Of a DNA stretch of 64,000 nt, positions 7,201 to 42,163 are shown in pieces (within the stretch, counting starts at the first letter, position 1; the number at the start of each line of letters is the position of its first letter). This DNA is from Curvularia clavata (taxonomy: Eukaryota): contig CP089274.1 in the NCBI GenBank assembly GCA_023920165.1, positions 4,526,001 through 4,590,000 on the forward strand, read 5' to 3'. Made by a program: the position numbers and the translations under genes. Under the pieces are notes generated by a model that saw only the letters and a program-made list of their open reading frames with translations, was not told where the DNA came from and did not search any database.

Positions 7201-8181
7201 ATGCGTTTCGTTCCTACCGACATCAGCTTCTCCGCGGCTGCGCTCGCGCTCCTGGCTTCGACTGCGTCTGCCCAAAGCTGCAAGCTTCCTACCACCTACA
7301 AGTGGACCTCCTCCGGTGCTCTTGCTCAGCCCAAGTCTGGCTGGGCTTCTCTGAAGGACTTCACTATCTCCAGCCTTAACGGCAAGCACATTGTCTACGC
7401 TACCAACCACGACACCGGCTCCAAGTATGGATCCATGAACTTCGGTGCCTTCAGCGACTTCAGCCAGATGGCCTCTGCCTCGCAGAACGGCATGAGCTTC
7501 ACTGCTGTTGCTCCTACCCTCTTCCACTTCGCTCCCAAGAACGTCTGGGTTCTTGCCTACCAGTGGGGACCCACCACCTTCTCCTACAGGACCTCCAGCG
7601 ACCCCACCAACGCCAACAGCTGGGGTGCCGCTCAGCCTCTTTTCACTGGCAAGATCACTGGCAGCAGCACCGGTGCTATTGACCAGACTGTCATTGGTGA
7701 CAGCAAGAACATGTACCTCTTCTTCGCCGGTGACAACGGCAAGATCTACCGCTCCAGCATGCCCAAGGCCAACTTCCCTGGCAACTTCGGCACTGCCTCC
7801 ACTGTTATCATGAGTGACACCGCCCAGAACCTCTTCGAGGCCGTCCAGGTCTACACTGTCAAGGGCGGTGGCTACCTCATGATCGTTGAGGCCCAGGGTG
7901 GAAACGGCCGTTACTTCCGCTCTTTCACTGCTTCCAGCCTCGATGGCGCCTGGACCCCCAACGCCGCCACCCAGGCCAACCCCTTCGCCGGCAAGGCTAA
8001 CAGCGGTGCCACCTGGACCAACGACATCTCCCACGGTGATCTTGTCAAGATTACCAACGACGAGACCATGACTGTCGACCCTTGCAACCTGCAGCTGTTG
8101 TACCAGGGCCGCAACCCCAACGCCGGTGGCGACTACGACCGCCTCCCCTACAGGCCCGGTCTCCTTACCCTCAAGAAGTAA
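7201..8181 (+). CDS. axhA: Secreted GH62 alpha-L-arabinofuranosidase (arabinoxylan arabinofuranohydrolase), no CBM
   Basis: Signal peptide. Motifs [69 protein letters not shown]. Intronless, with strong C-ending codon bias. Confidence 0.96.
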
Positions 8182-8395
8182 ACTGCTTTTTGCAGCTCTT
8201 CTTGCCAGGCCTTCTCTTCATTGTAAATGGACTTTTGTGTTGGAGATTTGTATATAGCAAACTTTTGAAGTGGAATTCGTACATATATTTTTCGAGCCAC
8301 CGGCTTGGGCTCTTTTCTAAAATCTACATTGCGTGAGCTATCAATCGATGCCTCTCTTTCATACCATGACTTGTTCCATCTTTCTTTTAGTGAAT

Positions 8396-10702
8396 CTACA
8401 AACTCCTTGCAAAGCATGCTTCGATAGCCCTCCGACCTTGAGCAACTCCCTGAAGGAAATCCGCCCGACGCTGCTGATGCTGGTAGACTTCATCTCTGCA
8501 CACCTCTAAGCCTGCTCTCTCCCTAGCCGCAATGTCTTGTAATATCGACCGGCTTGGAGGGGCCAGTAATTGGACTCCGCCCCCACTCCTCGCAAGGGCT
8601 TCGTGCGCTTCCATGAAGGCCCAGGCCATTCCAACGAGCAAGTCTCGATGCGCTAACCACCGCATACTCATCCAAACCATGAATTCTGAAAAAGCGACTG
8701 ACTCAGCGTCGCCCAACAACACTGCCTCCCGCAAATTAGACGGCTGTGCGATATCTGCATTGCGGCATATTTCCAGGCCCAGTTCAACAAGCCCAATGGC
8801 CTGGCCATCATCTGTCCGGTGTACCTCGTCCATACCGGCTACACCCGTCCCCTCAACGCTGAAACCAGACTGAGCCCGAATAACGCGGACGATGGCAGAA
8901 CCAAAGGCGTTCGCTGCGCGCACAGGAACGGCTGGCAATGCTTCTAGAAGCGCCGGGGAAGCGAACCATAGGGGGAGAAATTTGGCCAAGTCCAATTTGC
9001 TCAAATCAAGATTCTGCATGCAGTAGATCGTTGGATCGCTCGGTAGGTGCACTGCTGCAGGAGCCACGATATTCTCAGGGGAGAGGAAAACGGGATAGTC
9101 TGTAAGAACGTCCAAGCGCTCGACCCGCAAATCGACATTGCGCCCGGAGATTTGTCCGGTGAATTCCCAGTACACTTTTGCATCTTGATCCGACACTAAG
9201 GCGTTCGAGCCAAGTTCATCAATCCAGGCTTTGACAATACCCACTTCTTTTTCGGTGAAGCTACCGAACATCTTGCCCTCCCACGAGAGCTCTCGGACCA
9301 GTCTGCTTTGGTTGCTGTGGCCTTTGATTACCCAGGGCTTGCAATTACTGAGATCGTGGAGGAAATCCTTCTGCCATGCTGCATTGCTGAAAGCATTTGG
9401 TTCCAGCCAATCTATAAGAGAGCGCCTGCCAATTCTCAAGCGGCTGTTGCAATGAATTTTATGGGCAACAGAGCTCTTCGCTGCAAAGATGGTTATCAGT
9501 TGCGCTTCTGTGTCTGTGCGGGGGAACGGTTCGTTGGCTTCTGATTTGAGTGACGGGCTTTCCGGTGTCGTAGGCAAGCCCTCGGCGAGAATGTAACCAG
9601 CCTGTACGCGTTTCCAAGCGACATGTGCTGCTTTCTCTCCTTGATCTTGAGCAACCAACCTTAGGTAATCTGCCACTGCAGCCATAGCCATGGCAGCATG
9701 GCCGGAATCCGCGTTGTCGATGGAAATGTGCAGCTCGAAATAGTAGGGGTTCAGGCGCAGTTCACGGAGTTCCTTGACCGTCTTGAACAGGTGGAGAGGT
9801 AAGCTCTCGTACGCCATGTTGAATCCCAGAGCCTCCGGCAAAAAGTCATGCGGGAAAAGTGAAATTGCGAGTTGGGCCATGGCAGCTTTCCAGCAACGCA
9901 CTTCGTTCAAGCCATGGCGCGGATGGATGAAATCCTCCGAGTCGGCTTCAGGCAGTTTAGCGTCGATGTCCTCCATCAGCTCCCGATACACATGTACATG
10001 GTTCTTTGCAATATCACCATCTCCCAGCTCTTCGGACATGACTTGCCATGCATTCTTGGTAACCTGGCGATGCTTGAAAGGTGTACTGATCTTGTTGATG
10101 TGTCCGAGCCATGCACCATCAACATACTTGACAGGGGCAGCTTGCTTGAGCCACCATTTTGCTTCTTCTTTATCTCCAAATATCTCGCGCGCTCCTCCAG
10201 CCCGTCGGCGAGTGAGGTACTCTTCCCATCTGTTGGTGACATCGGCATCTTTTGCTGTGAGGAAACCCTTCAGCCCGTCTAATGAAAACTGTTCAACGGA
10301 GAGGATAGTATTTTCCGGCTCCTTTATTGCTTCTGCGATTGTCGATGAGAACAAAGCCAGGAGAAATTCGCGGCACTCAGAGATAATTTCGGGATGATAC
10401 TCTAGATTGTGTAGCTTGTGGTACAGTTGCTTCAGTCTTTCCAGCTCTTCTTTGGCAGAATCAGCTCCATAGGAATCAGGAGAAGTATCGAAACTGGTAT
10501 CCGGAATTGGCAACTTGATATCCCCGGCTGCAGGCCTGGTAGGACTGTGTGGTGTTTCCAGGTCCTTCTTTCTGGGCCAGTTTCTACTCAAACGATTCCG
10601 AACTTCGCTATAGGCAATAATAGCAAGAAAAGCCACCAAAACTGCTGTTGTTGTTTGGAGGATGTACATTGTGGCGTCGTAATGGTGTGCTTGGTATTTC
10701 AT
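8396..10702 (-). CDS. Heme-oxygenase-like diiron oxidase/oxygenase (iron-containing redox enzyme family) with N-terminal membrane anchor; start may be Met at 10669
   Basis: Intronless 768-aa ORF. Motifs APVKYVDGAWL, SEELGDG.IAKNH, EALGFNMAYE and YFELHISIDNADSGH supply the E/H/E/H/D/H ligand pattern of HDOs. Hydrophobic AVLVAFLAIIAY near the N-terminus. Confidence 0.88.
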   Translation of the reverse strand: MKYQAHHYDATMYILQTTTAVLVAFLAIIAYSEVRNRLSRNWPRKKDLETPHSPTRPAAGDIKLPIPDTSFDTSPDSYGADSAKEELERLKQLYHKLHNLEYHPEIISECREFLLALFSSTIAEAIKEPENTILSVEQFSLDGLKGFLTAKDADVTNRWEEYLTRRRAGGAREIFGDKEEAKWWLKQAAPVKYVDGAWLGHINKISTPFKHRQVTKNAWQVMSEELGDGDIAKNHVHVYRELMEDIDAKLPEADSEDFIHPRHGLNEVRCWKAAMAQLAISLFPHDFLPEALGFNMAYESLPLHLFKTVKELRELRLNPYYFELHISIDNADSGHAAMAMAAVADYLRLVAQDQGEKAAHVAWKRVQAGYILAEGLPTTPESPSLKSEANEPFPRTDTEAQLITIFAAKSSVAHKIHCNSRLRIGRRSLIDWLEPNAFSNAAWQKDFLHDLSNCKPWVIKGHSNQSRLVRELSWEGKMFGSFTEKEVGIVKAWIDELGSNALVSDQDAKVYWEFTGQISGRNVDLRVERLDVLTDYPVFLSPENIVAPAAVHLPSDPTIYCMQNLDLSKLDLAKFLPLWFASPALLEALPAVPVRAANAFGSAIVRVIRAQSGFSVEGTGVAGMDEVHRTDDGQAIGLVELGLEICRNADIAQPSNLREAVLLGDAESVAFSEFMVWMSMRWLAHRDLLVGMAWAFMEAHEALARSGGGVQLLAPPSRSILQDIAARERAGLEVCRDEVYQHQQRRADFLQGVAQGRRAIEACFARSL

Positions 10703-11289
10703 CCAGGTATAGATGAATTCCTATGTCGGCTATTAGGAATGTTATGGTTTTATTGTTTGTACTTGACGCGATTGTGGCGGTGAATGCACCAGCGGGCAAA
10801 TGCACCGCACAAATCATGCTGTCAACAGTGACGGTATACATTTGACTGGTACCCGCTTTGTGTCAAACCATTACGGATCTACAATATCGTAGACTAAACG
10901 ACATGTGGTTAGCTGACATGCACCCCACAATACGTCAGACGGCTGTTCCTGTTACCAATGCGATTTCCTTGCGTTAACAGCACCACGTTGCTGGTCGAGT
11001 AAATGTCTCTCGCAGAGATCAGGGATCACTTGCATATGTGGTACCGTCCACTTTCCGAATGATTTCCTTTGTCGTAGGCCAAGGCCCGAACATCATCAAC
11101 GCAAGCTTGGTAACAATGGATCAATACCAAAACACGACGTCACATTGACTCGTTCTATCCTCCGCGGCGCATGCGTCTTTCATGTCGCTCATCTAGACCA
11201 CGCATTTTTGTTTTAGACATGGCGGCGCCTCTGCGCATACTGTGTTTCAAAGACCTCCACGGAATGGCAATTGCTTTTCCCCATTAATT

Positions 11290-12415
11290 ATGCCGCAATC
11301 TACCGCTTACCAAGCCCTCACCCAACACTTGGCGAAGTCAGGTTATGTCTTTGTATGCCCTTCGCCTGAGACCCAAGGCAGAGTAGTCCAGAAAAGACGC
11401 TCAAATGTTTCGACAGAAGATGCGCAAAATGTAGTTGACTTCTTTGGATGGAATCTATCCTGTACAAGGCAAGTTGGATCCATGACAGGGGAAATTTAAC
11501 CTCAAATTATGCTAACGCGCTTTTAGAGAATCTCTCAAATCTATGATACCGGATGCAGTATTTGAGAAGCTTTGCGAAGATTCGGTCATCGTCCAGAACA
11601 ATGACAAGAACTACCGCTCCAAAATTCGCGTGTCGAACTTCTACCTACCAAACCCCCTGAGCCGCGATCCGGACGCAACCTCTTTGTACTACATCCACTC
11701 TTCGTTCCCAGCCTCGTCCGATTCTGTCTTCTTCGGCCCTGACACATATCTTTTCGTCTCCTTCCTCCAGACCATAACACGTCATCTCTCGCAAGAGCCA
11801 AGCTCAGTTGTAGATGTATGCTGCGGATCGGGGGCAGGGGCGATACATATGGCGAGAACGTACCCACAGGCAAAAGTGATGGGTCTGGATCTGAATCCCC
11901 AAGCATTGAGCCTGGGTGGCGTAAATGCACAGCTCGCTGGGGTCGATGTCGCATTTTCTGAGTCGAATTTGTATGCTGCTTTGCCTGAAAATACGAGTGC
12001 ACAGGGCTTAGATCTCATTGTGAGCAATCCGCCATACATTGCCTCGAGCGTCGACGGAAAGGACTTGCCCATCTACGCAGATGGCGGCGCAGGTTTTGGT
12101 TTGGACATCTCAATACGCATCGTCGAAGAAGGTATCAAACTTCTGTCTCCAAATGGTGTGATCGTTGTGTACACGGGCGTCGCAATACCTACTGCCGATC
12201 CCGGCCAGGACGCTTTCCTGCAGAAGCTAAAACAAGTAAAAGGGGGCGAGCTCGCCGAATACACGATTCTGCACCCGGACATGTGGCCAGAAGAAATAGG
12301 AAAGGGTGCTTACGCCGACGTATGCAGAATACAGATTGTTGGTGCTGTGCTGCGTCGCACTACTGAGAGCAAAGAGGATGTCAAGGCCGAGATTCGCAAG
12401 CAATGGGCAGTGTAG
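11290..12415 (+). CDS. HemK/PrmC-like class I SAM-dependent N-methyltransferase, 355 aa; exons 11290-11468 and 11527-12415
   Basis: Motif I VVDVCCGSGAG, GLDLN, DLIVSNPPY, YADGG..GL. N-terminal GYVFVCPSPETQ.RV, DFFGW and HSSFP...DSVFFGPDTY. A GC-AG intron (AG|GCAAGT...GCTAAC...TTTTAG) joins the two ORFs in frame. Confidence 0.88.
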
Positions 12416-12492
12416 TGAGCCCGTTTCGATCAAATTATCATGGCTATCGGCAAAATATCGATATTTGAGATACTTAATTAAAAGCACACCGA

Positions 12493-13684
12493 CTATTTGA
12501 ACTCAGCGTCAGGATGCATACCATCCGGAATCTCCAAAGCAGTCGTGTAAGCAGACTGACCGACCTGCTTTCCCCACGTAGCAGCAATCGCTGGCAGTAC
12601 CTTCCTCCCTGCGTGAACCGCGTTGGTGTTCGGAACAGGCCATGGTACGGAAGTATTCTTGTTGTTCAGCTTGCCAGCGTACGAAGAGTTAAAGTACATG
12701 TTGCTCAGCGGAACTTTTCCAGACCAAGGTCGCACACTATCTCCCGTTTTCTCAGCTACAAACTTGAAGACGTTGGCGCCTACATCCCAGCGTCCGAGGG
12801 TGTCAAGGCACCAGTTGGCTTGGACCGTAGAGATTTCGCTGTAATGATTGTAGTAGGAGTTGTCGCTGGTGCCAACCAGATTGGCGGGAACAGCATCGCC
12901 AAGCAAGATGCTGACGACGCGGTTCGGCTTGCCATAGGTATGGTTTTCATCAAAAGTGACCATCACAAGAGTGTTGTTCATGAAGTTTTTGTTTGTCAAC
13001 AGGGGCTCGAGGAACCTTTTTGTCCAGCTTCCTGCAACTGTTACGGTTGAGTCATGTCCTGTAGTATCGTCAGCGCATCTTCAGAAAATCTCTCAATATA
13101 AACGCGAATTTACCATCGCTAGTCATGTTCGGGGTAATGAACATCCACTGTGGCAACTGGTTCTTCGCCATATCATCGTTGAACATGGTCAAGGGTTTGA
13201 TCTTGGCCAACCTGTCCGTCTTCTGCGCTACCGAGTCGTACAGCACAGCCGGATTGTGCTTCCTCACATACATGTTCGCTCCCGTCTTGGGGTTCGGGTA
13301 TGATTTCCCTTGGAACCCAACAGATGGCATGTCTTCCTGGTACTCGCCCCAGCTGATTCCTTTGCTCTCCAACAGATCGACCAGTGTGGAGACGTTGGAC
13401 GGAATGGCAACCATGTCGTCATGGTTAATGCCGTAGTAGTCTCCTGATATCGCAGCCGCGTAGTTGGGCATGGAAGGGTGTGTAACGGCGAAGTAATTTG
13501 TCAAACTGATTCCCTTCTTTGCGAGCCACGCGAGGCTTGGGTCGCCAGCTGCGAGATCATAGTCGGTGTTTTCGAGCCATATGATGGCGATTCGGTCGAA
13601 TGCCTTGCCTTTGACTTTTGTCTGGCCAGTAACGGGGCTAAAGTTTGCCAAAAAGGCTAGCGAAAGAAGGAATGGGGTTTTCAT
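12493..13684 (-). CDS. Secreted phosphoesterase-family (phosphate-repressible type) acid phosphatase; intron 13059-13113
   Basis: Signal peptide. Motifs IIWLENTDY, THPSMPNY, YVRKHNP, FITPNMTSD|GHD (formed across the intron), VTFDEN, YNHYS. Confidence 0.92.
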
Positions 13685-14379
13685 AACGATTGTATCAGGT
13701 AGATCTGCGAATCTGTCAGAAACTAAAACTCTAGCTCTGAAGTACTCTACTCACTACGAAAAGTCACCAAGAGGAAAAGCGCCGAAAAGACAACAAAACA
13801 CTCTCACGAAGATGAGGATGGACCTAACCTTTTCTTCCATCTCTCTTCTTATTGCACTGCATCAAGCGGCTCACGCCGGGACCCTTGATGCACTGCTATC
13901 CCCTGTGTACTAAAATCGTACTAACCAATCAGCATGTTGACAATAGACTCGTGCTATACGACTAGAACAAGCGCCTCGGACGTATTGTACACTAAGCCAA
14001 GCTTTTTAGGAAGGTAGACAAGCTTCGGGTGGGTATCGGCTATGAACGTGCGGGGCTGATTGGGCCAGAGGGGTCGGCGGGTATGTGCAGCTTGCAGAAT
14101 GCACGGAAGAGCCAGGGGATGACATGCGCACGAGAATAATGGCTCGACCCCTCGGAGAACAAGTGAATGAAGATCCTTGCCTGTCATGTCGATCGTAGAA
14201 AAAGTGGCGAAGGGTCTGATGGACTTTTGATTCAAGGACCATGGGAAATATGACCCATCTTGGGCCATCTTTGTTTCGGCTCCGCCTGAGCAATGCTGGA
14301 CGTTGTCGTATCGCACTTTACCAAGATCGTTCTTTGCGCGAATCATTTTGCTGCCTAGGATTGAAGACCGGTACTCGCG

Positions 14380-16443
14380 ATGGGCCGCGGCCAAAGCTTC
14401 GACATGAAGGACTTGTCCGACGATGCCCCACAGAATGTACAGGAGCAAGTCGGTTTGTTGTACGGCTCAAAAGATCATAGCATAGACAGTGATGAATTCC
14501 TAGAAGGACAAGAGTCGAGTAGGGATGATAGCAGCAAGAGTACACAACATAAGCGGCGGCGGCATTGGATCACGACAATCTTCATGATCTCTCTCCTAAC
14601 ATGTACACTCCTTATCCTTACACACAAAGCTCTCATTAGCAAGACTGGACCTCGTATATCGGACGGAGCCATCGGTCCAGCACGTCTACGACCAGAAGAA
14701 GACTACATCCTCTCTTCAACATGGGATTTCAACGCGCCACCCACCACCCGCGAATACACATGGATCATATCTGAGCACATGCTCAACCCTGATAGTGTAT
14801 ACCGCCCGATGCTCCTAATCAACGCAACGTTCCCTGGCCCCCTACTCGAATGCAATGAAGGAGACGAGATCGTTGTGCATGTTCACAACCAGGCGAGCAA
14901 TGCAACCTCGATCCACTGGCACGGCCTGTATCAGAACGGCTCCAACTGGATGGATGGAACAGTAGGCATCACGCAATGCAGTATTGCGCCCGGTCACACG
15001 TTCACCTACCGCTTCCATGTGTCCGGTCAATCAGGAACCTACTGGTACCACTCGCATCTCAGCATGCAAGCTTCCGACGGGCTCGTTGGACCGCTGATTA
15101 TCCACGCGCGGGGCGAGGGCGAAGAAAGGAGCAAATTGCAAAAAGTACCATATGAACAGGATCGCGTGGTTTTGCTCTCCGATCACTATTATGATCTTTC
15201 TTCCCAGTTGCTGGAACAATACCTCGCGCCTGGCAGCGAGAATGACGAGCCTGTGCCGCAGTCTGCTCTGATGAATGGGCGTGGCTTGCGGAATTGCAGT
15301 GAGCTCCCTGGTCGAAAGTGTGATGCTACGCAACGGCGTAATGCGCTATTTACTCTGCCTCGAGAGAGCAACACAAGACTTCGAGTTATCAACGTGGGTG
15401 CATTTGCAGAGTTTGCGCTTCAGATTGATGAGCATGAGGTATTGGTTACCGAAGTTGATGGCACGGATGTAGTGCCAACGACTATTCATCGCCTTAACAT
15501 CAACCCCGCGCAAAGGTACAGTGTGATCATCACGCCGCCACCGAAGAAAAAGGGCGGAGAAGCAGAGCTATATTGGATCCGGGCGCGAATGGTCACGCAC
15601 TGCTTCGCGTACGAAGAACCCGAACTGCAAGAGGAGGTTAGAGGTGTTCTGGCCTACTCTCCTCCAAGCCCAGGAGACGGGCAACACACTCTGCTACCCA
15701 AAAGTAAAGACTGGCCCGAAATTATCGACGTAGAATGCCGCGACCTCAACACCTCACTACTAGAACCCGTTGTCGCTATCCCAGCCCCGGCCATCGACCC
15801 TCAACACACCCTGTACCTGCGCTCATCCTTTCAAATCCGCGACTGGAGACTCTCACGAGGCTACCTCAACGACAGTTCGTTCCGAACAAACGCCACCACA
15901 CCTCTTTTACAAACCTTCCTTTCGTCGCTTTCTAACGAGGAAGGCAAAACCGAAGGCCTCATCACCCACCATCCAGCAATCTCCCCAAAAACGCAGTCAA
16001 CCTACCAAACCTTATCCCCCTCCACAACCATCACGCTCCTGATCCAAAACCTAGATGATGGAAACCACCCGTTCCACCTCCATGGATACAAATTCTTCGT
16101 ACTCGCCCACGGACATGGATATCCTCCTCCCTTGAACGAAGGCCATTTCAATATGACCAACCCCCTACGCCGCGATACGGCGAGCGTAGAAGCGTACGGG
16201 TGGCTAATGATCAGTTTTGTGGCGGATAATCCCGGGGTGTGGGCGTTCCATTGCCATATCGGGTGGCATACAGAGGCAGGGCTGATGATGGTTTTTGCAA
16301 CAGCGGTAGAAGGGATGCAAGGGTGGAAGGTTCCACGGGAGGTGGACGCTTTGTGTGGGATGGAGGGTGTGGAGAAGGGGATGGGTCCGGGGGATGAGAA
16401 GTGGATTGGGTGGAGAGAGGATGAGAACGAGAAGAAGGCGTGA
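14380..16443 (+). CDS. Laccase-like multicopper oxidase (AA1), type II membrane-anchored, intronless
   Basis: Copper motifs HWHG, WYHSH, HPFHLHG and HCHIGWH (Leu at the axial position). About 60 hydrophilic residues, then a transmembrane helix instead of a signal peptide. Confidence 0.94.
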   Translation: MGRGQSFDMKDLSDDAPQNVQEQVGLLYGSKDHSIDSDEFLEGQESSRDDSSKSTQHKRRRHWITTIFMISLLTCTLLILTHKALISKTGPRISDGAIGPARLRPEEDYILSSTWDFNAPPTTREYTWIISEHMLNPDSVYRPMLLINATFPGPLLECNEGDEIVVHVHNQASNATSIHWHGLYQNGSNWMDGTVGITQCSIAPGHTFTYRFHVSGQSGTYWYHSHLSMQASDGLVGPLIIHARGEGEERSKLQKVPYEQDRVVLLSDHYYDLSSQLLEQYLAPGSENDEPVPQSALMNGRGLRNCSELPGRKCDATQRRNALFTLPRESNTRLRVINVGAFAEFALQIDEHEVLVTEVDGTDVVPTTIHRLNINPAQRYSVIITPPPKKKGGEAELYWIRARMVTHCFAYEEPELQEEVRGVLAYSPPSPGDGQHTLLPKSKDWPEIIDVECRDLNTSLLEPVVAIPAPAIDPQHTLYLRSSFQIRDWRLSRGYLNDSSFRTNATTPLLQTFLSSLSNEEGKTEGLITHHPAISPKTQSTYQTLSPSTTITLLIQNLDDGNHPFHLHGYKFFVLAHGHGYPPPLNEGHFNMTNPLRRDTASVEAYGWLMISFVADNPGVWAFHCHIGWHTEAGLMMVFATAVEGMQGWKVPREVDALCGMEGVEKGMGPGDEKWIGWREDENEKKA

Positions 16444-36101: not shown

Positions 36102-38767
36102 CTACCAAGCCGAATTGCCGCCTCCACCTCCCCACTGCCTTCCACTTCCTCCCGACTGGCCCTGACCATACGAATCATACGCGCCGCCCTGTCCATACGC
36201 GCCGTAACTGCCTGGCGGTGGCTGCTGTTGTTGGTGCTGCTGTCCATACGCAGGAGCCTGACCCGGAGGAGGACCATAATTTTCATAACCCTGCTGATAA
36301 TTCGTGGGGAAAGCATAACTCGGTTCTTGGCCCTGACCGCCCGTGTACTGGCCGTGAGACCATCCGTAGCCGCCGGCGGGAACGGCGTTGCTGTACTCGG
36401 CGGGGGGCTGGTACGCTTCGCCGGCGTGGGAGGACTGGTAGGGATGGAAGTTTGCCCACTGCGGGGAGGGCTGGGGGGAGGGCGAGAAGGGACCTGTTGC
36501 CCCGTGAGGGGAAAAGGACATGTCGTCGCCTCCTTCACGGGACTGGCCGGAGTTGCTACCACCAAGGCTGCTGAAGATGCCGCCGAGGGGTCCGGGAAGG
36601 TTGCTGCCTAGAGAACCTAGGAGGTTGTTGGATCCGCCGGATGGCTTGCTGGATTGTCCGCCGCCGTGGCTGTGGCTGTGGCCTTGGAAACTGGATACGC
36701 CTGCCGCGCCGTGTCCGTGTCCTGAGGAGTGGTCGTGGGAACCGCTATGGTTGTGACCCGCCTTTACAGATTCAGATGAAAGGACATCGTTCAGGTCTTT
36801 GCCGTGGTAATTGTGCGCCCAGTTCTTGACTACCTCGAACATATTGACGTGGACTTCGCAGTGCGGGTCTCGGAGAACGGGATGGTGGAATACGCGGGCT
36901 ACGTCGTTCAGGACTTGGTCGACGGGAACGTCTGGGTGGTCCCAGGCATAGATAACGCGGGGCGCGACATATTGCAGAATTGCTACGGCAACTTGACCAG
37001 CAGGTGCGTTGAGGATGTTGGAGAAATGGTCCTTGGACAGCATGCTGTGGGTGGGGTTGGTGGACGTGGGATCATTCCAGACTTCGAACTGGTGCTTGGC
37101 TGCCGAGTCGATGACAGCTGAGGAGCCGCTTTTGAGCTGGCCTGATGCCGTCTTGATGATCGGCAGGATGAATGGAGCAAGCAGTGACAACACGAAGATG
37201 GTGACACGCTCCGTGATGGTCTCGATCAACTTCTCGAGTCCCGGAATCTTGGAGATAATGTTTGAGATACTCCGGACGACGTTATCCCTGAAAACTAGGA
37301 TAGGGTAGATCTTTGGAATGATGGCCGCAGGGTCAGTGTTTGTGCCTGGGATGTCCGGCCCTGGCGGTCCACCAACAGAGCCAGGTGGTGCATCAAACTG
37401 GCCGGGTCCAGCTCTGGACGAGCTGTAGTCGCCAAATCCGGAGCGGGCATTCTCTGCGGCTTGTGCATCTGATGAAGCCTGTAAACTCCTTGCTTGGCTG
37501 ATGAGGTCGCCAGTACCCGGAACCATGTTCAAAGCATCTATCAGGCCACCGCAGGGATCGGATCCTCCTGGCCCAGACCTCTTTCCACTACCTGAAACTG
37601 CGTCTACAAGGGCAGTGTTTACTTCGTCAATCTCGGTTTGTGTGATATGGTCGTTTGCCTCTCCGAGAACAGAGTGGAAGAAATCAACACCACCAAATGT
37701 ACCAGTGACAAGTGGGTAAGTGTGCTTCCCGTGTAGGTTAATGCCAGTCTGTACACCCGTATGGGGGAACACATTAGTGTATCCGAGCTCGCGTAGTACC
37801 AGCTCGGTATAGTTTGTGTGCGCACCAAAGTCTTCTAGACAGTGCAGTCCTTGGCCGAGACAGCGAAGCGCTTCTGCGAGGTCCTCCTCTCGTCCACGTT
37901 GGCCTGATGGACCATGGGTATACAGACGGCCAAAATGAATAGCTCGTGCAAAAGAGTATTTTACGTATCCCGAAGACGTAGCCCAGTTACCATGTTCGTT
38001 AGCAATGTAATTTTTCATTCCTGTATTAGGATCGACAGCCAGCTCAACCTCTGATACTGGACCACGGAGACGCGGATCATACTTGCGAGCATCTTCATTG
38101 TCGGCATAGTCTTTCTGTAAGAGTATTAGAACCAACGTATTTTTGTTTGCATCTTGTACAGCTTACGGGGTTGTCTGTCTACTTGTTAGCATTTCCACTC
38201 ATGGCTTGGCTGGCTTTGCTTACCGATGTGTTCTTCGGGCCTGTACACACCCAGTCTCTCGGCTGTGACTTCGAATTCTCCAGTCGCATAACCAAAGGAC
38301 ATGAAAGAAAGGACCCAGACCAGAACGCGAATAGTTTCCGCCTGGTTACCGTCAGTATGCTGTCACGTGTTTCAGCCATGCTTTTGGCGTACCTGGACTT
38401 TGGCCAGCGTGCCAACATCAACAGCCTTGGAGAGTCAGTAAATTTCAATCATCTTCAGTCTGTCCAGCTCACTTGTGAGTAATCGCGTAACCAGTTGCCA
38501 AAGTACACACGCTACGCCAAACGTCAGTGACTACATTACAAGGCCGTGGCTGCTTGCTCCCACCTTGATCATCTGGCTCTTCCATTTGTGTCCTTTTAAG
38601 CAGGCGACCGTCGCAAGCATATCCTCAATATCTCCATGGCGCCAGTTCTTGCCCTCAATCTTGGAGATGGATGCGATATTCCCCGCGCCAAAGGCTTCGG
38701 CGCTAGTGGGCAGCAGGACGAGGATCGCGAGGGCGACGAGCAGCACGTATTTGGATGAGATACCCAT
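36102..38767 (-). CDS. het-c: Het-C family heterokaryon-incompatibility-like protein with signal peptide and Gly/Tyr/Gln-rich tail; introns 38115-38166, 38175-38223, 38342-38392, 38426-38472, 38512-38563
   Basis: AFGAGNI...NWRHGDIED, RVYFGNWLRDYSQAVDVG, LGVYRPEEHIDNPKDYADN, LHCLEDFGAHTNY, PLVTGTFGGVDF, PTHSMLSKDHF. Confidence 0.95.
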
Positions 38768-39264
38768 GGCTGGAACAACAAAGGGAAAAGAGAAGGAGCG
38801 GGGTCTTGTAGGAGAGTTGAGTAAGAATCTTGGAGGTGCTGACCTCTTATCCGCTACGGTCAGCTGTTAACGTCGACGGATAAGGCGGTGCAGGAATGAC
38901 GCCACACGTCACCGAAGCCCACTCAGATCAAGAAGAACAAAAAAACACCGTGCCTGACTTGCCAACCACGGTGTGCATGGGATTTATGTGAGTAATCCTA
39001 GCTCAAAATACCCACCTTTGGCGAGGCTTTGCTGCCCGATGCAACGTTGGAACCGCTTGCGCCACAGCTGCCCCACCTCGTGCCCAGTTGATGCTGTGAA
39101 GGGGGGCCCTATTCAGCTGAAGCCACTCCCCTCATCTGAGGCGTAGCTAGCCAATCCTTGACAGAGCGCAATGCTGCCTGCTGACAACATTGCTGCCTGG
39201 CGAATATGTCGCTGGCATCGACTTATCTCTCGCCGTCGCATCCTGACTTTCCTACATAACAGTC

Positions 39265-42163
39265 ATGGAGCGTGATCGGAACATGGAAGAAGTATCTGAG
39301 TCGGAGCCCCATGTCTCAACACCAGCTACAATGGAAGCCGAAACACAATCAGAACGAAGCGTGCATACGCCTGATTCATTCCAGCCGCTGTTCTCGGACT
39401 ACAAGGAATTCTACAAGGCCATCGTACGCGGAGAAATCGAGACGGTCAAGTCCATGCTAGACGCTGGTGCAAACATAGAGCGCAAAGAAGGAGGCGATGG
39501 CGCTACACCACTGGTCCTGGCCATCTACAAGCGTCGCGTCGACATGGTAAAGTTCCTGTTGGAAAGGGGCGCAAATGTGAATACTACAGTCTCCTTCTCG
39601 CCTCCCTTGTTCCACGCAAACGCAGCAGGTGAGGACGCGCCTCGCATCCTGCAGCTGCTTCTTGACCATGGTGCCAACATCGAGGAGATCGAGCCGTCTT
39701 CTTCCCTGAATGTCTTGCACGTGGCAGCTGTCCACGGTGATATTTACGCTGCCGATTTTCTTATCAGCAAAGGCCTGGATATCCATCGGAAGTGCGAACA
39801 TGGGAAAACACCGTTTCTCCTTGCCGCCGAGAAGGGACAGACAATGATGGTAAAACTACTCCTTGCAAAAGGGGCTGATCTACATACACGAAGTGGCAAC
39901 GGTGCTACTGCATTGATGTGGGCTGCGCACACCGGACAAGTAGAGACCGTAAAGTTTTTGCTAGAAAAGGGTATGAATCTAGAGGACCGTGATGAAGATG
40001 GATTGAGTAAGTACAAGTGCCATGTTGAGCCATTACAGGATGCAACTAACAATGTCAGCCGCGCTTTCAGTGGCTAGTCGCGCAGGTCACAAGGAGATTG
40101 TGGAGATGTTGCTCGAAAAGGGTGCAGATATCAACGTAATAAGTACTGAGCCAAGAGAGACTACTCCCGCCATGTGGGCAGCGATCTATGGACACGACCA
40201 AGTGCTCAAGGTACTGATCGATCACGAAGCGGACCTTTCGATCTTATCAGACGACAATGAATTGAACATACTTGAGATTGCTCTGAGAAGAGGCCATGCT
40301 AAATGCGCGAAGATGTTGCTAGAAGCCATCGGAGGACCTGACCACCCAACCAACAGTGCTGCGCTCCAAATCGCCCTAACAAAATGTATGGCTGAGACCA
40401 GACCCGTTGTAAACACCATATCCTCACTCATGCCACACATCAACTTTGATGGTGCTTCTTCAGGGAAATGGGGATGGATTAAATGGGTGCTCGACCACGG
40501 TGGTGAGCTGATCCGACCAAGGGCAACGCTCAATCTGCTGCACTTTGCGCTGCTTGAAGACGAGGTTGGTGCGCTTGCTGAGCTACTCAGACTGGGCGTC
40601 GACCCAAATACGACTGTGTTCGATGGAGATACACCACTCCACGCTGCTGTGGGCCGCGACAATATAAAGCAGCTCCAACTCCTGCTTGATTCCGGTGCGG
40701 ATCCAGCTCGACCGTCACAAGACCCTGATCATCTCTCGATCACCCCATTACACTATGCAGCGATTCGACTGGATGGTGACGAGAAAAAGGATACATCGAT
40801 CATCGATGCCTTACTTGCATCAGGGCGGTGCAAAATCTTGTACGGCGACAGCCTGGACACGACTGTATTCGCATACGTAATGAACAAATTCGAACGCTGG
40901 GAGAACAAACTAGCCGATAAAATAGTAATCCGCATGATCGAATGCATACCGGATGTTAACGAGGAACGTTCTGGGGAGGGTGCTACGCTGATGCATGCTG
41001 CTGTGTTAAGCCGAAACCATGAGCTCGTCGACCTCCTCCTGCAAAAGGGGGCTGACATGAATTCTAGGGATAAGTACGGCTTCACACCTTTCATCATAGC
41101 TTGTCCCACCCCGCCAGAAGATTTTGACTTTATAATCTCACGGGGTGCTGATGCATTTGCTGTTGATCGCCTTGGGCGATCAACCCTGTATCACGCCGCT
41201 GCCCACGGGTCAATGGAATCAGTTCGATATCTTCTCGACCTAGGCGCTGCCAGCGACGAGAAGAACAACAGCCTGAGCATTGAAACTACAGAACACAGAG
41301 GCTGGACCCCTCTGATTGCGGCCATTACAAAGAAGCACGAGGATATAGCATTGTACTTGCTCGAACGAGGCGCATCAGCTACGCACTATACGAACGACAA
41401 GAAACGGACTGCTCTGCACTACGCGTCACTATACAGCATGCATAAACTGGTCGACAAGATTCTCTCCGACCCCACCGCCAGCGAAATCATCAACTCTCCG
41501 GACGAAAAAGGCTGGACTCCTCTCTCCCTCGCCTGCCTTGCGCCTTCCCCCACTGTCGTCCCCCAGCTCCTCTCTCACGGCGCAGAAATCAACACCCGTC
41601 ACCCATTCACATCTGACACGCCTCTGCACACGGCCTTTAAGCGCCCCTTTAGCTTTGGTCCCCGCGACGCGCGCTGCGGTGATCCAGCGCTCCTGCTACT
41701 CAAACACCCCTCTATCGACCTTACTATCCGCGACGCCCAATCCCGCACTCTCCTCCACTTCGCTGCTGAATTCCACAATTTCCCCGCTGCCGAGCTCCTG
41801 CTCTCCAAAGGCGCATCCCCAAACGACGTCGACGCTTCTGGAAAAACGCCCCTTGCACTCTGCTCGCGCCCAGACACCGTCGAAGCATTGATTCAAGCCG
41901 GCGCGGACGTCAATCACGCGGAGCCGAATGGCTGGACCCCTGTGCACCACGCCGTTCGTAGGTGCTGGGTTGCTGCGTATGCAGTGCTAGTGGAGCACGG
42001 GGCGGATGTGGAGGCGAGGACGGCGGATGATGGCATGAGTGCGAAGGAGAGGATGGAGAGGATGGGTGGGGAGAAGGCGTGGGCGGGGAGGGAGCCGGAC
42101 TTTATTGCGGAGGATATGGAGAGGGAGAAACGGAGGGAGAAGATGATGAGTGATATGTTATGA
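39265..42163 (+). CDS. Large ankyrin-repeat protein, about 948 aa; intron 40007-40058
   Basis: Roughly 20 repeats of G.TPLH.A...G...V..LL..GA.VN type along the whole length. Intron A|GTAAGT...ACTAAC...CAG joins the two ORFs in frame. Confidence 0.92.

Follow-up and report, generated by a model that had tools for sequence, protein, structure and literature searches.

A predicted diiron oxidase of the heme-oxygenase-like type and a predicted NPPY N-methyltransferase form a transcribed two-enzyme module conserved in fungi and bacteria

The genome of the fungus Curvularia clavata carries, head to head, a gene for a predicted heme-oxygenase-like diiron oxidase (HDO) and a gene for a predicted N-methyltransferase with an NPPY motif. 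Both lie within a 64,000-nucleotide stretch of contig CP089274.1 (GenBank assembly GCA_023920165.1, positions 4,526,001 to 4,590,000), hereafter called the window. We find that the pair is a real, transcribed and anciently conserved two-enzyme module. An earlier note on this DNA, made from the sequence alone, had described an intronless HDO with a full iron-ligand pattern that diverges from a HemK-like NPPY methyltransferase across a spacer of about 590 bp, with a set of quoted motifs in the two proteins and with no polyketide synthase (PKS), non-ribosomal peptide synthetase (NRPS) or terpene backbone gene in the window. This description stands. All of the quoted motifs are present, and Pfam reports no PKS, NRPS or terpene synthase domain among 27 long open reading frames (ORFs) of the window that were scanned. 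The features of the locus are collected in Table 1.

The HDO is encoded by the longest ORF of the whole window. In its longest form this frame runs from 8396 to 10702 on the reverse strand and, read from an ATG at 10702, encodes 768 aa. In the protein collection the window's own entry has 757 aa, and aligned orthologues begin at M12 (10669) with MYILQ, so that 10669 is the likely start. The methyltransferase, a product of 355 aa, is joined from the forward-strand ORFs 11290..11499 and 11543..12415. The two ATGs are separated by 587 bp (10703-11289), which becomes 620 bp with M12 as the HDO start.

Both genes are transcribed. Contigs of four public runs from three studies were placed on positions 8300-12500, and they cover the HDO and the methyltransferase in all four runs, at depths that cannot rank the two genes. 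The index lists none of these runs as RNA; we infer that they are, because the intron is missing from the contigs, the promoter gap is uncovered and there are loose ends of adaptor or poly-A. The methyltransferase intron is spliced in four of four runs: the contigs jump 58 nt, from 11466 to 11525 with a 2-nt ambiguity, and match the predicted 58-nt intron exactly. In run X1, one contig crosses 8300-10894 without a joint and includes the entire HDO gene, which is therefore intronless. The X1 contigs stop at 10894 on the HDO side, resume at 10978 and then run through the spliced methyltransferase; such ends do not fix where transcripts start. The stretch of about 83 nt at 10895-10977 is the sole intergenic part that lacks X1 contig cover. 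It has a CCAAT box inside and may be the core of a bidirectional promoter.

Table 1. Features of the HDO–methyltransferase locus and its surroundings, in window coordinates.
Feature	Coordinates	Strand	Remarks
HDO coding sequence	8396..10669	-	757 aa from M12, stop included; intronless
HDO C-terminal helical domain	8399..9040	-	residues 555-768; long eukaryote-type forms only
HDO family-specific subdomain	9143..9541	-	residues 388-520; K409, H417, W432, SR.W, MFG.F, E486, W493
HDO catalytic heme-oxygenase-like core	9542..10468	-	residues 79-387, from structural matches
HDO metal-ligand codon span	9698..10120	-	predicted ligands D195, E225, H235, E299, H325, D329, H335
HDO N-terminal hydrophobic helix	10604..10666	-	residues ~13-33, YILQTTTAVLVAFLAIIAYSE, followed by basic residues
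Divergent intergenic region	10670..11289	.	both 5' untranslated regions and shared promoter
Methyltransferase exon 1	11290-11468	+	residues 1-59 and two bases of codon 60; GYVF..P.T..RV and DFFGW motifs; aligns with full-length fungal and bacterial homologues
Methyltransferase intron	11469-11526	+	58 nt, GC-AG, phase 2, CTAAC branch site
Methyltransferase exon 2	11527-12415	+	stop included; HS.FP....VFFGPDTY, Rossmann fold, S-adenosylmethionine (SAM) motif, NPPY
SAM motif	11813-11839	+	DVCCGSGAG
NPPY motif	12026-12037	+	residues 227-230
GH62 arabinofuranosidase gene	7201-8181	+	secreted type; PF03664, E 2.5e-160; tail to tail with HDO
Phosphoesterase gene (PF04185)	12493-13684	-	two exons
Multicopper oxidase gene	14365-16443	+
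Het-C heterokaryon-incompatibility homologue (E 9e-190) and adjoining long ankyrin-repeat gene	36102-38162, 39247-42163	-, +

The HDO belongs to Pfam family PF14518 (Haem_oxygenas_2; E 9e-35, 120.5 bits over a cut-off of 28.9), with residues 182-370 covering the full profile (1-177). It is 76% identical to a protein of Bipolaris sorokiniana, and every named protein among its best 120 matches is fungal, nearly all from Pleosporales. It carries the motifs YLTRRRAGGAREIF, APVKYVDGAWL and LPLHL..ELRELRLNPYYFELHISIDNADSGH. Short bacterial relatives of 345-418 aa, about 35% identical, share these motifs. No curated NCBIfam model is reached by either the HDO or the methyltransferase.

The predicted metal site is strongly conserved. 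Six of the seven predicted ligands (E225, H235, E299, H325, D329 and H335) are invariant in 49 fungal and bacterial rows, and the seventh, D195, is kept in at least 90%. A profile alignment to SznF places D195 on E189, E225 on E215, H235 on H225, E299 on E281 (one position off), H325 on H311, D329 on D315 and H335 on H318, with the ligand lists and numbering of SznF and RohS taken from the accessible part of PMC13133933. The set of three histidines and four carboxylates (3H/4C) was first recognised in the N-oxygenase SznF and is common to RohS, according to the available text of PMC13108848 and PMC13133933; the latter, as far as it could be consulted, gives the seventh carboxylate as so far known only in these two enzymes and ties it to substrate-independent O2 activation.

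An AlphaFold2 model of the HDO, built from the 49-row alignment (predicted local distance difference test, pLDDT, 83.6; predicted template modelling score, pTM, 0.76), falls into four parts: an N-terminal helix, a catalytic bundle, a subdomain at 388-520 and a C-terminal helical domain. It has the seven-helix heme-oxygenase-like fold. Foldseek returned HrmI, RohS and SznF as top matches, with a probability of 1.00 and with E values of only 0.03-0.1 for the 768-aa query. Alignment with VIA-align ranked RohS first over HDO residues ~79-387 (Z 19.3 for 9pfw, 252 aa at a root mean square deviation (RMSD) of 3.1, and Z 18.3), followed by HrmI (9nh9; Z 16.5-16.8, 264 aa) and SznF (6vzy; Z 13.7-15.4, 255 aa). 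Then came FlcD (Z 12.5-12.8), CADD (Z 11.4-11.8), BesC, HamA, PolF and UndA (Z ~10-11; UndA 10.3) and PqqC (Z ~8). Moreover, the HDO family profile matches SznF (E 7e-4) and RohS (E 8e-4) among PDB sequences. Judged by model and alignment, the HDO is an O2-activating diiron enzyme. Its predicted site is of the 3-His/4-carboxylate kind, and its closest structural relatives are all N-oxygenases.

Related enzymes do other things with the same fold and ligand set. UndA, BesC and MboA catalyse desaturation or C-C cleavage, PolF C-N cyclisation and CADD a self-sacrificial cofactor synthesis, and they match the model at Z 10-12. The window HDO might likewise carry out chemistry other than N-oxygenation, with the methyltransferase tailoring its substrate or product. 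The invariant residues Y320, Y321 and K192 close to the ligand motifs could be read in this way, and HDO reactions are diverse in the accounts given by the accessible parts of PMC13108848 and, for MboA, PMC13185094. We nevertheless think such a role unlikely, because the top three structural matches are N-oxygenases that stand 3-7 Z units above the rest, and because the predicted seventh carboxylate is present here, as it is only in SznF and RohS in the consulted part of PMC13133933.

The model has a helix at residues 2-41, followed by disorder at 41-77; this N-terminal helix is present in the window protein and its Pleosporales orthologues, is absent from the bacterial rows and is a probable membrane anchor. 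The subdomain at 388-520 is common to the bacterial homologues and is conserved across 80 long eukaryote-type forms. The C-terminal domain is modelled with a pLDDT mostly above 80. Its match to the TenA homologue 1rtw (Z 9.7 over 174 aa) is weak and below the safe level for helical bundles, and only P593, R609, G613, G623, D625, L689 and G691 are conserved at 90% or more. A second metal site in this domain was considered and rejected, since there is no conserved His/Glu pattern. We read the domain, from the model, as a non-catalytic, duplicate-like second bundle of the heme-oxygenase/TenA type. Seven relatives of 728-791 aa (P0427, P0432, P0437, P0444, P0447, P0448 and P0450), one of them from a collection of microbial metagenome-assembled genomes (MAGs), have the HDO core in their C-terminal half (~460-750) and a second matched stretch. 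They may be tandem heme-oxygenase-like proteins, a hint that the fungal C-terminal domain may have arisen by duplication. No HDO–methyltransferase fusion was found among 21 unusually long or oddly arranged HDO relatives, in which Pfam reports PF14518 only.

The methyltransferase matches the Pfam MTS family (E 3.5e-12) and carries the motifs GYVFVCPSPETQGRV, DFFGW and HSSFPASSDSVFFGPDTY. Its NPPY and SAM motifs are invariant across the fungal and bacterial rows, which also share the family motifs HS.(F/Y)P....VFFGPDTY, Y..GG...G...S and PD...EE. Its scores against the NCBIfam models TIGR03534 (PrmC; 82.5 against a cut-off of 199.1), TIGR00536 (72.8 against 115.5) and TIGR03533 (69.3 against 229.7) lie far under the PrmC, PrmB and HemK cut-offs, and it therefore does not count among the orthologues of the enzymes for release factors or L3. 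The bacterial partner methyltransferase likewise stays below these cut-offs.

The fold of the methyltransferase was taken from the model of an orthologue, P0203 (83% identical over exon 2; pLDDT 88.2). Against structure representatives this model best matches the peptide methyltransferase AerE (7rc2; Z 24.1 over 314 of 355 residues, RMSD 4.8, 17% identity). The match is a resemblance only; it extends over the N-terminal domain as well, and thus over the two-domain architecture. HEMK2 (Z 22.5), the gentamicin 3''-N-methyltransferase GenN (21.8) and PrmC (20.2) follow. Among PDB sequences the best matches are HemK (E 4e-8), 7rc3 of the AerE family (4e-6) and N6AMT1 (6e-6). All of these closest matches are N-methyltransferases that act on amide or amine nitrogens. 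In the ESM Atlas the look-alikes of the methyltransferase are bacterial MTS clusters only, actinobacterial ones among them; the same search with the HDO returned only its own fungal clusters. Model and motifs together indicate an enzyme of the HemK/AerE/GenN type, an N-methyltransferase that depends on SAM and has an NPPY motif.

The pair is kept together in other fungi. A metagenome scan gave 14 fungal loci with HDOs 47-74% identical to that of the window, and in 11 of them a methyltransferase lies head to head upstream of the HDO; two of the exceptions have a short upstream flank (L082, 287 bp; L093, 781 bp). Consecutive locus tags for the two genes are found in eight annotated Pleosporales genomes (Alternaria dauci, A. 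panax, Paraconiothyrium brasiliense, Plenodomus lindquistii, Ascochyta clinopodiicola, Didymosphaeria variabile, Paraphaeosphaeria minitans and Coniothyrium glycines). Many more HDO and methyltransferase matches agree in the length given for their longest contig, an indirect sign that the two genes share a contig there. The GH62 and phosphoesterase flanks are kept as well in the closest fungal loci, so part of this conservation is plain synteny. Three loci (L089, L090 and L092) keep the pair, and the window's flanking genes were not found within their several kilobases of flank.

We also observe the linkage directly in bacteria. One genome for each of 185,579 prokaryotic species was scanned with an alignment of the short HDO relatives; at least 599 stretches matched and at least 560 were confirmed as relatives. 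Counts of bacterial loci refer to the best 80 of these at least 560, which come from Stutzerimonas, the Pseudomonas oryzihabitans group, Oxalobacteraceae, other Burkholderiales, Methylotenera, Abditibacteriota and Armatimonadota. With the spliced fungal protein as tblastn query, 61 of the 80 loci contain a full-length methyltransferase homologue (query residues ~3-331 of 355, 30-37% identity, E 1e-30 to 1e-49). It lies directly downstream of the HDO on the same strand in 52 loci, is a convergent immediate neighbour in four, is divergent as in fungi in one and lies ~5.9 kb off in another four; in 19 loci none was found near the HDO. The two genes are thus immediate neighbours in 57 of 80 loci, in three orientations. 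Fungal and bacterial proteins align end to end in both families, with many invariant positions.

Only these two genes are conserved beside each other. When the ORFs of the bacterial loci were clustered (those of at least 90 aa), no conserved third gene appeared beside the pair, and the gap between HDO and methyltransferase is mostly too short for another gene. Indeed, the proposals of the earlier note that the two families stand side by side in proteobacteria such as Pseudomonas, and that fungi keep them as a divergent pair, agree with these counts, Stutzerimonas included. Its further suggestion of a frequent partner, a YbdK-type carboxylate-amine ligase, did not survive: no YbdK/GCS2-type ligase was found among 115 scanned proteins of the bacterial loci (two of them the pair itself), a scan that covered all 79 clusters recurring in at least two loci and left most of the 273 singleton clusters outside. 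Cyanophycin synthetase recurs instead.

The earlier note had also raised a possible horizontal transfer, which the trees do not bear out. An exhaustive HMMER search with HDO residues 80-520 gave 964 representative clusters with E <= 1e-3, of which 283 had E <= 1e-30, and the best 150 of the 964 are nearly all 640-1030 aa long with the eukaryotic architecture. Named members come from Ascomycota (Dothideomycetes, Sordariomycetes and, in Pezizomycetes, Geopyxis), Basidiomycota (Kockovaella in Tremellomycetes and Pseudomicrostroma in Exobasidiomycetes), Chytridiomycota (Spizellomyces, Gaertneriomyces, Geranomyces and Phlyctochytrium), Blastocladiomycota (Sorochytrium), Hyaloraphidium and the amoebozoan Clastostelium. 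A quick maximum-likelihood HDO tree was built from 90 rows: the 30 bacterial ones left by a filter at 72% identity, every second long fungal representative and 14 deep-branching rows. It sets the bacteria on one side of a branch with a Shimodaira–Hasegawa-like approximate likelihood ratio (SH-aLRT) of 100, and no fungal rows are nested among them. The chytrid and amoebozoan group stands next to the bacteria, with Dikarya beyond, and the eukaryotic part resembles the species tree. The methyltransferase tree, of 21 fungal rows (essentially Pleosporales) and 23 bacterial rows, splits cleanly into fungi and bacteria (100/100). Both trees are unrooted, and their bacterial sample is drawn from the 80 best loci.

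Is the fungal pair nevertheless a recent bacterial acquisition, a small secondary-metabolite cluster? One could argue so from an intronless HDO beside a methyltransferase with one short intron, from the same pair being an operon in bacteria, and from the nearest large ESM Atlas clusters of the methyltransferase, which are all bacterial. We judge this very improbable. The sampled bacteria form one clade in both trees with the fungi outside, nearly all of the best HDO clusters are of the long eukaryote type, and the family occurs in four fungal phyla and an amoebozoan, with chytrids apart from Dikarya as in the species tree. Since the fungi are not nested in the sampled bacteria, recent transfer into fungi is not supported by these sequences. 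The spread of the HDO over four fungal phyla and an amoebozoan points to an old and mostly vertical history; an ancient transfer in either direction would be compatible as well.

Within bacteria the pair may have moved as a unit. The HDOs of four Abditibacteriota and Armatimonadota loci (L001, L002, L003 and L025) nest inside the proteobacterial clade, and where flank is available their methyltransferase is the convergent neighbour. These methyltransferases fall within the bacterial clade, in a poorly resolved part of the tree. Adjacent genes in these phyla, together with HDOs nested among those of proteobacteria, suggest that the pair moves together between bacterial phyla.

The same loci bear on the idea that the linkage is no more than inherited synteny round a bidirectional promoter, with the two enzymes serving unrelated processes. 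The GH62 and phosphoesterase flanks shared by the closest fungal loci would fit, as would the bacteria and the one fungal locus that have an HDO without a neighbouring methyltransferase. We hold it to be extremely unlikely, given that adjacency recurs independently in bacteria (57 of 80 loci, three orientations) and in fungi, and that the Abditibacteriota loci also carry both genes adjacent and have HDOs nested inside the proteobacterial clade.

The bacterial neighbours hint at a substrate. In 15 of the 80 loci a cyanophycin synthetase gene (cphA) lies beside the HDO or the methyltransferase, often with a second CphA-like gene and a cyanophycinase (L036, L038, L040, L044, L060, L065, L066, L070-L072, L073, L074, L076, L077 and L079; Duganella, Massilia, Orrella, Piscinibacter and MAGs). 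CphA (1031 bits against 850) and cyanophycinase (239.8 against 126.6) pass the NCBIfam equivalog cut-offs. Five arrangements occur. Massilia has HDO-cphA, and Duganella has HDO-cyanophycinase-cphA facing cphA'-methyltransferase. In Orrella and a MAG, a DAO-Rieske gene, cyanophycinase and cphA come after HDO-methyltransferase. A Burkholderiaceae MAG has cphA-like-HDO-methyltransferase, and Piscinibacter has HDO-methyltransferase-cphA-like. The second CphA-like gene lacks the N-terminal part. In Massilia the cphA operon apparently begins with the HDO, while the methyltransferase is elsewhere in the genome.

Other recurrent neighbours are transporters (of the auxin-efflux-carrier family in 16 Stutzerimonas loci, and LysE, amino-acid permease, MFS and TRAP types), the DAO-Rieske amine-oxidase-like gene and an amidase, as well as unrelated flagellar and signalling genes. 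In Stutzerimonas loci (L013-L016, L041, L054 and others) the pair comes directly behind fliR-flhB-flhA, genes of flagellar export, from which a small PilZ-domain gene often separates it, and is followed by the auxin-efflux-carrier-family transporter on the opposite strand.

Our best guess at the substrate, by analogy, is arginine or another guanidino compound (free Arg, beta-Asp-Arg or cyanophycin-type material), because cyanophycin is poly-Asp decorated with Arg and because 2-aminoimidazole, the substrate of RohS, derives from arginine. SznF points the same way, since it N-hydroxylates N-omega-methyl-L-arginine in the account given by the accessible part of PMC13133933.

A polymer next door in 15 of 80 loci also lends itself to a different view, in which a macromolecule is the target of the pair: the methyltransferase would act on an amine or on a Gln or Asn side-chain amide of a protein or peptide, and the HDO would oxidise the same target or be itself the target or partner. 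The best relatives of the methyltransferase are protein Gln-N5 methyltransferases (HemK, N6AMT1) and the AerE family of peptide Asn N-methyltransferases, the AerE fold match runs the full length with the N-terminal domain, and no other biosynthetic gene is conserved beside the pair. On the other side stand scores far under the PrmC, PrmB and HemK cut-offs and a patchy distribution, at least 560 relatives in 185,579 prokaryotic species, that does not suit a central part in translation. Nor did a conserved gene for a small precursor turn up, in data that were not searched systematically for one. On balance we regard a macromolecular target as improbable.

We propose, with a probability of roughly 0.45, that the two enzymes act consecutively on nitrogens of one common amino-acid-derived substrate, with one N-methylation and one or more N-oxygenations. 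The N-oxygenase chemistry, the substrate and the membrane topology we infer, and either step could come first. The methyltransferase would move the methyl group of SAM onto a planar nitrogen gripped by NPPY. The HDO would build a diiron(II) site from its seven protein ligands and convert O2 to a peroxo-diiron(III) species, and would then hydroxylate or further oxidise a nitrogen of the same molecule. In fungi the N-terminal helix and the basic residues after it would anchor the HDO at a membrane with its catalytic part in the cytosol, where membrane-bound reductases could feed it electrons. The logic would be that of SznE, which is an arginine methyltransferase, and then SznF in streptozotocin biosynthesis. 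Such a scheme would do without a backbone synthase, with a primary metabolite or a storage polymer as its substrate. The earlier note had already put forward N-methylation combined with N-oxidation, and the idea fits the closest structures of both proteins. A peroxo-diiron(III) species is described for SznF in the available part of PMC13133933.

A number of points weigh against this proposal. The fold ranking of the HDO (Z 15-19 for the N-oxygenases, 10-13 for the others) is no proof of N-oxygenation, and HDO chemistry is hard to predict, as the accessible part of PMC13108848 puts it. The predicted seventh ligand, D195 in the VDGAW motif, is an Asp where SznF has Glu, and the alpha-3 motif of the core is H-x3-D-x5-H, with a three-residue insertion, rather than the usual H-x3-D-x2-H. 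The nearest sequence relatives of the methyltransferase modify proteins or peptides, not free amino acids. Nineteen of the 80 bacterial loci lack a nearby methyltransferase; in two of these 19 the sequence extends less than 500 bp downstream of the HDO and several kilobases upstream. A profile hidden Markov model (HMM) run over six frames also found no methyltransferase in 11 bacterial loci that had no tblastn match. Five such genomes were searched whole: three have a family methyltransferase elsewhere (full-length, E 1e-117 to 1e-133) and two have none of the family type, so that the HDO can exist alone. Linkage in fungi was examined within Pleosporales only, and L094, at 47% identity the most distant of the fungal loci, shows no methyltransferase within 13.9 kb, including 3.7 kb upstream and 8 kb downstream, by profile HMM as well. 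The cyanophycin link is confined to loci of the Burkholderiales type and is absent from the other 65 of 80, and Pfam reports no cyanophycin synthetase domain among the 27 long ORFs of the window that were scanned.

Among the closest known systems is SznE/SznF, likewise an N-methyltransferase together with an HDO. Of all PDB sequences SznF is matched best by the HDO family profile, and it has the predicted seven-ligand 3H/4C pattern in common with the window HDO; apart from the insertion and the Asp ligand just mentioned, the proteins differ in that SznF has a C-terminal cupin, whereas the window HDO has a membrane helix and a C-terminal helical domain instead. Indeed, Pfam reports no cupin domain on the 768-aa HDO, and the C-terminal domain of the model is all-helical. 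The fluopsin C pathway likewise has a methyltransferase (FlcC) and HDOs (FlcD and FlcE) in one operon, but the fold match to FlcD (Z 12.5) is weaker than those to the N-oxygenases, and the flc operon has further genes, whereas here only two genes are conserved. AerE (the aeronamide Asn N-methyltransferase), HemK/PrmC, HEMK2 and GenN are NPPY N-methyltransferases like that of the window. They are 17-22% identical to it, and the window enzyme has conserved motifs of its own; it has an HDO as partner instead of a release factor or the precursor of a ribosomally synthesized and post-translationally modified peptide.

HrmI and BelK (L-lysine N6-oxygenases; 9N1X, 9NH9) gave the best Foldseek match and are amino-acid N-oxygenases, for which we know of no methyltransferase pairing. 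HrmI is 12% identical to the window HDO and is classed as 3H/3C in the consulted part of PMC13108848. RohS (the azomycin N-oxygenase; 9PFW/9PFX) is the best structural match, over 252-259 aa, belongs to the same Pfam family and also has the seventh carboxylate, according to the accessible text of PMC13133933. It differs in being a single-domain enzyme of ~300 aa, 11% identical, that acts on 2-aminoimidazole in a dedicated pathway, and a methyltransferase is nowhere mentioned in its paper (PMC13133933). The mangotoxin mbo operon was considered as a parallel with HDO, methyltransferase and ligase and was dropped: in the available part of PMC13185094 (2026) the partners of MboA are a reductase, two ATP-grasp ligases and a deiminase, with no methyltransferase among them. 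HDOs combined with N-methyltransferases are known, and the present pair is an uncharacterised version of this combination, distinguished by the pan-fungal spread of the HDO, its eukaryote-specific domains and the recurrent cyanophycin link in bacteria.

Several further genes surround the pair in the window. One contig of run X11 shows loose poly-A at 8361, at a distance of only ~35 nt from where the HDO stops; this is probably the polyadenylation site of the GH62 gene. Beyond the methyltransferase lie the phosphoesterase and multicopper oxidase genes, which are syntenic in the closest fungal loci (L083, L085, L086 and L091) and not in more distant ones. The Het-C homologue and the ankyrin-repeat gene stand farther off.

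The accessible part of a 2026 review (PMC13108848) presents HDOs as a superfamily of bacteria in which only about a dozen members have been validated; 'fungal' and 'eukaryot' are absent from that review as terms. Here a distinct HDO family is widespread in fungi, from chytrids to Dikarya, with a predicted N-oxygenase-like 3-His/4-carboxylate site, and it is tied in fungi and bacteria to a dedicated NPPY N-methyltransferase. We found no publication on the pair in the literature searched, a search whose coverage left out most subscription journals. Cluster finders centred on backbone enzymes would not flag it.

A still more specific idea, which we rate as very unlikely, is that the module is a system of fungi, an amoebozoan and patchily distributed bacteria for N-methylation and N-hydroxylation of arginine or guanidino groups, giving N-hydroxyguanidine-type products (nitric-oxide-releasing or nitrosating) or modified, cyanophycin-like Asp-Arg. 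If it were true, the fungal module would be a candidate source of arginine-dependent nitric oxide without a canonical nitric oxide synthase; such a source in fungi is, to our knowledge, still an open question. The cyanophycin link gives a concrete and cheap set of candidate substrates. The reaction, once solved, would add a new chemistry or substrate to the HDOs, and would assign a function to a pair of genes carried by many plant-associated fungi and soil bacteria.

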